64,000 bases of DNA from Candidatus Hodarchaeota archaeon (GTDB taxonomy: Archaea; Asgardarchaeota; Lokiarchaeia; Sigyniarchaeales; SOKP01). A program made the translations under genes and the position numbers. The notes below the pieces were generated by a model, which had not been told where the DNA came from, made no database searches, and saw only the letters and a program-made list of their open reading frames with translations. Where the stretch lies: positions 78,238 to 142,237 of the forward strand of contig JBHLJY010000006.1 of the NCBI GenBank assembly GCA_048887225.1. Direction: 5' to 3'. Each line of letters begins with the position of its first letter. Position 1 is the stretch's first letter. This document shows, one piece after another, positions 12,602-13,954 of the stretch.

Positions 12602-13954
12602 GGCTTCTTCAACCCCTCTTCATTTGCCATTACAATAACGGCTGCATAAGCGGCTCCTGGACCTCCGATCGAATGAGCAATGGACCGACCTTTTTCAATT
12701 GTGACTTGGTGTTTGCCAGCATCTCCTCTAATCTGAAGAGCGGCCTCTCCTGTGCTCATTATACCAGTCGCGCCCACAGCATGTCCACAGCCAATTAAGC
12801 CTCCCGAAGGACAGCATGGCAATTCACCATTTAGCCAAGGACCTTCGCCGGGCTTTTCGAAAGAATTTTCAATCCAAGGACCGCCTTCTCCGAATGGTAC
12901 AAAGCCTAATTCTTCATAAGAAATTACTTCTTGACCGCTAAACGCATCGTGGAGCTCTGCAACATCGATTTGTTCCTTAATCTTGTTGTAGTCGAGCCCT
13001 GCCATTTTATAAGCTGCTTTAGCAGCTTCAATGTTTGAATAAAGCCGACCAATGCTCTCTCTGTTTCCGATAAAACAATCTGTATTTGCAGCAGCGACTC
13101 CGGTTATCCATGTAGGCTTTTCCACGCCGAGTTCTTTTACTTTTTGTTCGTTTGCAAGGATTAATGCGGCAGAAGCCTCGGAATAAAGACAGCAATCCAG
13201 GAGTTTGAAGGGATAACAGATAATTCTTGAGTACATAACGTCTTCGACGGTTACCTTCATTGGCGATTGAGCCTTTGGGTTGAGCAGAGCGTTCCCATGA
13301 TTTTTAATGGAAACCATAGCCATATAAGCCAAAAGTTGAAAATATTCAACTGATTGTTTGCTCTTCGGTCGGGTTTCCAAATTCTTTGTAATGTGCATTT
13401 ACCATAGAAACATATGAAGATGCCGCCATCATGCCCATAGGATATTTACGGAATATCGCGAAATGCGAATTAAATTCTTTCATAAGTCATATCCGCAGAA
13501 TAGGCAATGGCATTTAATACTTCTGGTGTTGTAACTCCTGTTTGCTAACGCTTTAAACTAAATATTTACAAGATTCGTCATAACAGTCGTTACATTTCTC
13601 CAAACCAATGCAGAGACACAAATCCGACAATCCAGATGCAACTTCAGCATAAGCCATTCTCACAGTATAACCTCCCGTTGCTCCGCCCGACGCAATTCTC
13701 GTGCCAGGTTTGTCATTCATGCCAAGATAACTATTAGTAAATATATCGGGCATGAATTGGCGTTCAAAAAGCTCATTATAAATTCCATAAACCGTGGACT
13801 GCAAATCTTTATGTATAATCTCTGCCCCGTTTTTATTTGCATCATCAAGAGCCAATCTAGTGGCATCAAACGCCAGCTCAAAATACGTTTTATCAAGATA
13901 CCTTGCTCTAAAAGGAGTAATGCCTACTCCGATTATCGCAACTCTATTTGGCAT
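12598..13954 (-). CDS. SCP2-type thiolase-fold protein, 4 exons: join(13954..13574, 13544..13479, 13444..13358, 13323..12598), 419 aa
   Basis: Removing three short inserts gives a continuous frame: ...GLEKCNDCYDE|QTGVTTPEVLNAIAYSADMTYE|YPMGMMAASSYVSMVNAHYKEFGNPTEEQ|MAMVSIKNHGNALLNPKAQ...; VAIIGVG, ELHDAF and SGGLIGCGHAVGATG motifs. Confidence 0.9.
13324..13357 (-). other. BHB intron 3 in thiolase mRNA (34 nt)
   Basis: Central helix GAGC/GCUU, bulges AA^A and AU^A, intron stem CAA/UUG plus AGUUGAA/UUCAACU; in-frame TGA; excision joins CAA|ATG. Confidence 0.88.
13445..13478 (-). other. BHB intron 2 in thiolase mRNA (34 nt)
   Basis: Central helix UAUG/CGUA, bulges AA^A and AA^U, intron stem GAAU/AUUC plus UCGC/GCGA; in-frame TAA; excision joins GAA|TAT. 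Confidence 0.88.
13545..13573 (-). other. BHB intron 1 in thiolase mRNA (29 nt)
   Basis: Central helix GACG/CGUU, bulges AA^U and AG^C, intron stem CUU/AAG plus UAAA/UUUA; in-frame TAA; excision joins GAA|CAA. Confidence 0.88.

Follow-up and report, generated by a model that had tools for sequence, protein, structure and literature searches.

Three predicted tRNA-type introns within a thiolase-fold gene of a Lokiarchaeia archaeon

Why should a gene that most relatives carry as one uninterrupted frame appear broken in an archaeal genome? In the stretch of 64,000 nucleotides analysed here (the window), a thiolase-fold gene on the minus strand (13954-12598) was called as two separate ORFs. More than 20 intact orthologs lack any interruption, mostly as one frame of 410-430 codons, and alignment of 29 orthologous loci reveals three clean inserts of 29, 34 and 34 nt, whose boundaries were set by this alignment independently of any RNA motif. 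Excising 13573-13545, 13478-13445 and 13357-13324 yields a CDS of 1260 nt encoding 419 aa with zero internal stops, 96-98% identical to the nearest intact, intron-less orthologs. The resulting exons, all read on the minus strand, measure 381 nt (exon 1, 13574-13954, codons 1-127), 66 nt (exon 2, 13479-13544, 22 codons), 87 nt (exon 3, 13358-13444, 29 codons) and 726 nt including the stop (exon 4, 12598-13323, carrying the Thiolase_C domains). If intron 1, 2 or 3 stayed in the message, translation would end at 133, 151 or 181 aa, respectively. A sequence-only reading of the DNA had proposed that 13445-13478 is a 34-nt bulge-helix-bulge (BHB) intron between micro-exons of 66 and 87 nt; the ortholog alignment bears out both the clean insertion and the two micro-exons, whose joined frame is open. 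An independent assembly (public run SRR30758827) is 100% identical across 2603 nt and carries all three inserts letter for letter, so an assembly artefact was rejected as their source.

The gene is single-copy in the genome, with the next paralog at 40%, and the relatives that bear names in the genome collection, 83-96% identical, are MAGs of Promethearchaeota (Lokiarchaeia). Orthologs at 88-89% identity also occur in records titled Deferrimicrobium or Hermodarchaeota (L248, L246, L247, L251 and L266), which are probably misbinned or mislabelled Lokiarchaeia. A profile search of the protein gave archaeal thiolase-domain subfamilies as best matches, every match being under the cut-off. Aligned to a solved acetoacetyl-CoA thiolase, the position of the nucleophilic Cys holds Gly; the nucleophile loop (window 13700-13670) reads ASGGATGG, with Gly replacing Cys in the gene and its orthologs alike. 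The same operon continues on the minus strand with a DUF35/ChsH2-type zinc-ribbon plus OB-fold gene (12104-12601) that overlaps the thiolase stop, and with a third, small SCP2-like gene (11733-12101), for which a Pfam search of the gene itself found no match and an ortholog gave a faint SCP2 match. Together with these neighbours, the thiolase-fold gene may resemble the Cys-less Ltp2-type aldolase modules. A sigma-70 promoter scan, a model ill-suited to archaea, returned nothing.

We then examined the RNA that intron 2 (minus strand, phase 0, with an in-frame TAA at 13472-13470) would form. The pairing proposed from the letters is exact. The exon-side strand UAUG (13481-13484) pairs 4/4 with the intron-side strand CGUA (13447-13450); the bulges AA^A and AA^U follow the respective strands, and further in come a 4-bp GAAU/AUUC helix and the inner stem UCGC/GCGA. 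Both 3-nt bulges are present, and a cut after the second base of each restores the E-Y junction together with the open 419-aa frame. The relaxed outer helix also held up, as a single U-A pair. The strict hBHBh' motif, which needs at least 2 bp in outer helix h, is absent from all loci at this site (CDS nt 447), each having one U-A, and intron 2 is thus the relaxed HBh' form of the bulge-helix-bulge. Introns 1 (13545-13573, 29 nt) and 3 (13324-13357, 34 nt), both on the minus strand, likewise have 4/4 central helices, GACG/CGUU and GAGC/GCUU.

How diagnostic is this structure? Among 34-letter shuffles, 15% gave a 4/4 helix and 0.3% a 4/4 helix combined with a 4-bp intron stem. The overall folding energy of intron 2 is no better than that of shuffles (z = +0.64), and the strict HBh' conformer lies at -4.0 kcal/mol versus -6.9 for the minimum free energy fold, which closes the 3' bulge; in a 320-nt context the central helix has a pairing probability of about 0.75. 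Genome-wide, a motif-only scan with coding scores returned 34 candidates versus 26-35 in shifted controls, no excess. The BHB motif alone is therefore modest, non-diagnostic evidence, and the strength comes from homology and motif combined. An Rfam search at the locus had no match; a group I or group II intron or another Rfam RNA was rejected, the 34 nt showing no conserved ribozyme core.

To exploit homology, we compared about 130 loci with one intact ortholog, using a protein-to-DNA aligner that permits jumps without restriction and is blind to RNA structure. In the thiolase family, 11 sites (CDS nt 34, 35, 381, 384, 444, 447, 460, 534, 542, 920 and 925) hold a total of 46 distinct inserts, each 28-35 nt long; of 99 distinct loci, 32 carry between one and four of them. 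Since kin loci count repeatedly, the events themselves are fewer than these figures suggest. Of the 46 inserts, 35 have a 4/4 central helix and the other 11 a 3/4 one, with none below, and the bulges are A-rich across the family. For the 41 inserts tested, shuffling gave 4/4 in 11%, and the mean number of pairs was 3.73 in register versus 1.0-2.0 with the partner slid. Every one of the 46 shifts the frame or holds an in-frame stop, including all 21 inserts of 30 nt. The DNA alignment is ambiguous at sites 384 and 542, and there it is the BHB register that recovers the conserved residues. Introns at CDS nt 444 and 460 in L015, L307-L311 and L340 flank a micro-exon of 16 nt. At site 542 (L007, L026, L182 and others), as in rpl11 intron 2, GGCU is self-pairing and stands on both sides; an intron end that repeats the exon end in this way could have originated by short duplication. 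Separately, a 37-nt insert in L337 (CDS nt 428) was excluded as a tandem exon duplication despite its 4/4 score. This duplication and the 1-nt and 2-nt frameshifts of L338 (nt 419) and L155 (nt 120) are ordinary lesions, that is, errors or pseudogenes, unlike the introns.

Covariation across related genomes had been suggested as a check on the intron 2 helix, and the result is favourable. The helix is kept in the four other loci with an intron at site 447, where a U-G to C-G change at an exon wobble base is tolerated and the intron stem shows a G-C/A-U exchange. L334 holds a clear homolog with the same ends, its inner stem gaining one U-A pair, whereas in L182, L276 and L335 the intron is 31-32 nt long, differs in its interior and has UACG/CGUA as central helix. 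Over the five loci, the central helix is paired in 100% of cells and the intron-side helix h' (4 bp in intron 2) in 90%, with one two-sided change; in register 95% of cells pair, versus 20-58% when slid. Covariation at site 447 by itself is non-significant (47 of 500 shuffles, five sequences). At two neighbouring sites the central helix shows true compensatory changes, which involve exon wobble bases: GACG/CGUU versus GAUG/CAUU at site 381, and GAAC/GUUU versus GAGC/GCUU at site 384. Site 381 is that of intron 1, where other introns occur in L197 and L263.

Additionally, we conducted a census of the present genome with the same motif-free aligner; queries drawn from two sister genomes, about 2.4 Mb in all, covered about 850 kb of it. 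All eight disruptive inserts of 28-36 nt in these 850 kb have 4/4 helices, on the coding strand only (2-3 of 4 pairs when read antisense), and frameshifts of the ordinary 1-2-nt kind hardly occur. The affected share of conserved genes is about 1%, and the thiolase-fold gene holds three inserts within 250 nt. The sole rpl11 carries two BHB inserts of 36 and 28 nt (G000 contig C4, minus strand, 65663-65628 and 65594-65567) that leave a 33-nt exon, and the sole rtcB is split within its GYDIN motif by a 29-nt BHB insert (L034:1646-1674, equal to G000 C13:33458-33486) with a 4/4 helix and a 9-bp stem, whose removal restores the motif. The rtcB genes of two further genomes, G002 and G021, are interrupted at that profile position too, and about 50 matches are whole. 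Since rtcB is the presumed ligase gene, a self-dependent loop is possible. An acyl-CoA dehydrogenase gene was verified as a further case of such an intron. Three more BHB inserts from the census lie at G000 C18:43842-43873, C4:215764-215799 and C4:125370-125342. The second of these shares with intron 2 a short inner-stem motif, TCGCA..TTCGCGA, and the two perhaps have a common source. In a sister genome (G001), five of five inserts of 30-32 nt have 4/4 helices (C9:608331-608302, C9:269072-269043, C9:6926-6955, C6:165902-165873 and C6:396833-396802), one of them falling in the LEGVRKRP motif of a gyrase-B-like type II topoisomerase B subunit. From 400 kb of a complete sister-family genome, the census obtained just 22 alignable blocks.

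The host genome contains tRNA introns and encodes enzymes suited to such substrates: an rtcB ligase gene and two EndA genes for alpha and beta subunits, of the type with an L1/CSL loop. The alpha subunit is closest to Aeropyrum pernix EndA, retains the Tyr/His/Lys triad and, aligned to the A. pernix structures 3AJV and 3P1Z, keeps the loop and the lysine equivalent to K44; the beta subunit is without the His. Asgard EndA has been described as an alpha/beta type with a loop that permits relaxed motifs (PMC5829648). In the mechanism we propose, the final six bases of the exon upstream would come together with the final six of the intron in a 4-bp helix flanked by two A-rich bulges of 3 nt, this exon-intron helix would be held together by the intron's internal hairpin, and the heteromeric alpha/beta EndA, with its relaxed-specificity loop, would cut after the second base of each bulge. 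RtcB would then ligate the exons, joining Glu149 to Tyr150, and the 419-aa enzyme would need the removal of all three introns. We put a probability of about 0.92 on the reading that the insert is such a tRNA-type (BHB) pre-mRNA intron, cut by EndA and joined by RtcB. Intron 2 is real and very probably spliced, and that EndA and RtcB act on the thiolase-gene RNA in vivo is what we infer from the DNA. Among cluster members and short database homologs, no junction-crossing protein was present at identity; no RNA-derived spliced contigs were found, the P0158 and P0200 contigs being intron-bearing DNA.

A dead gene marked by small mobile hairpins or MITE footprints would also present as a broken frame, all the more so as the inserts are missing from the nearest relatives and a metabolic gene could be dispensable. 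Selection argues strongly against this. Purifying selection on exons 2 and 3 had been predicted from their open frame, and the counts agree: against the two nearest orthologs they show 26 synonymous codons to 1 replacement (pS 0.80, pN 0.025), exon 2 having zero replacement changes and exon 3 the single replacement E169K. Counting lineage-specific changes only, the ratio is 23 synonymous to 1 replacement in exons 2-3 and 146 to 11 over the whole gene. Three inserts with no other lesion are hardly the mark of decay, intron 2 recurs in a distant genome whose spliced frame is open, and inserts of the same type sit in single-copy rpl11 and rtcB. A transposon origin meets the further difficulty that there is no target-site duplication, junction repeats measuring 0-3 nt in 39 of 41 inserts (2 nt for intron 2), and that the intron 2 core occurs once in the genome even with up to 2 mismatches allowed. 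Neither a pseudogene nor a MITE explains why pairing reaches into the exon at a fixed offset, and we regard this account as very improbable. Translational bypassing, in which the ribosome hops a hairpin, has precedents in T4 gene 60 and the yeast mitochondrial byps, and the inserts are about 30 nt, hairpin-shaped and carry a stop shortly past the take-off point. Yet a take-off codon matched by its landing codon, such that the conserved protein results, is found in only 2 of 41 inserts, intron 2 not being one of them (GAA versus AAA), many sites are in phase 1 or 2, and the 4-bp exon-intron helix is left unexplained, so that bypassing hardly merits belief.

Excision might instead be precise and programmed at the DNA level, in only some of the cells and with the helix used by a DNA-processing enzyme; assemblies would hide rare forms, and the intron-less relatives are precise. 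The helices, however, depend on G-U pairing and form fully on the coding strand alone (2-3 of 4 antisense), their geometry fits the EndA motif exactly, and two assemblies keep all three inserts, which leaves this route with almost no likelihood. A different kind of alternative accepts splicing and takes the introns for a selected regulatory switch that truncates the protein unless EndA/RtcB capacity is free. That all 46 inserts bring a frameshift or in-frame stop (the 30-nt ones without exception), that they cluster strongly at nt 381-542 of one gene and that rtcB itself has an intron in three genomes speak for it. Against it, two thirds of the orthologs are intron-free, positions, phases and sequences vary freely between lineages, and AT-rich inserts often hold stops by chance, with kin not independent. 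We consider a switch unlikely; spliced introns that are near-neutral passengers, tolerated since they are spliced, are the most likely interpretation.

Introns 2 and 3 are both common to the present genome and a distant-clade gene (L334, with a 35-nt homolog of intron 3 and an open spliced frame), whereas the seven nearest relatives have none. The gene tree places the present genome as sister to these seven loci, all intron-less (support 0.97-0.98). Yet none of the other 99 loci is as similar as L334 around introns 2 and 3: its synonymous identity is 24/35 near the introns versus 127/298 elsewhere (Fisher p = 0.004, in a region chosen post hoc). The excess is located in the 5-8 codons adjoining each intron and is absent mid-exon, a pattern that structural constraint predicts too, so that transfer and ancestral loss are not separable by it. 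In distant carriers of a shared intron, whose synonymous sites are otherwise saturated, identity at such sites is 88% over the five codons upstream of the intron versus a 45% background, which is what constraint on the exon strand of the helix would produce. Lateral transfer of short tracts and an ancient origin followed by many precise losses are both compatible with these data. More broadly, and only tentatively, we suggest that protein genes of Loki-type Asgard archaea have an exon-intron architecture based on the tRNA-splicing machinery, in which one mRNA may hold several introns, micro-exons can be as short as 16 nt, roughly 1% of the conserved genes are affected, and ORF-less 30-nt introns are still gained at recurrent hot spots and moved sideways between lineages via short recombination tracts.

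The closest known case is the cDNA-confirmed intron in the cbf5 pre-mRNA of Desulfurococcales and Sulfolobales (Yokobori et al. 2009, PMC2738675). The two share a short intron in coding sequence with mostly relaxed BHB borders, cuts after the second bulge base (predicted here), a hetero-tetrameric EndA, a variable interior and patchy loss (PMC2738675). The cbf5 case is one intron at one site of one gene in Crenarchaeota, with cDNA support (PMC2738675), whereas the thiolase locus is Asgard and metabolic, has three introns per mRNA and is known from DNA alone; its family has 11 sites and exons down to 16 nt, and many other genes are affected. The BHB intron of Haloferax HVO_1309 (Schwarz et al. 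2020, PMC7714728) is likewise an EndA substrate within an mRNA, but it lies in the 5' UTR, has a strict motif and a homodimeric enzyme, and restores no reading frame. Asgard archaea are known for abundant, multiple non-canonical tRNA introns (PMC11291895; bioRxiv 10.64898/2026.10.13.758758), which have the same motif, presumably the same enzymes, repeated gains and an equally unexplained arrival route; those papers concern tRNA genes only, and by the terms searched neither reports introns in coding sequences. BHB introns of other protein genes are unconfirmed predictions (PMC2738675). Within the literature searched, which leaves most subscription journals outside, cbf5 is the sole confirmed BHB intron in a coding sequence (PMC2738675, PMC7714728). 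New at the thiolase locus are the multi-intron gene family, the micro-exons and the recurrent hot-spot positions.

Public Asgard annotations hold thiolase-family genes as fragments, with many entries of 127-157 aa, and gene inventories and completeness estimates are affected as a result. The 46 introns at 11 sites in one family form a data set on archaeal intron gain, loss and movement, a question that the 2026 Asgard tRNA-intron preprint left open (bioRxiv 10.64898/2026.10.13.758758). A triple-spliced gene in the prokaryotic group nearest eukaryotes would mean that genes in pieces can exist without a nucleus or spliceosome, and that the problem of translating an unspliced message is likewise possible without them. 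From an ancestral background of this kind, the splicing of HAC1/XBP1 mRNA by an endonuclease plus RtcB could plausibly have arisen.
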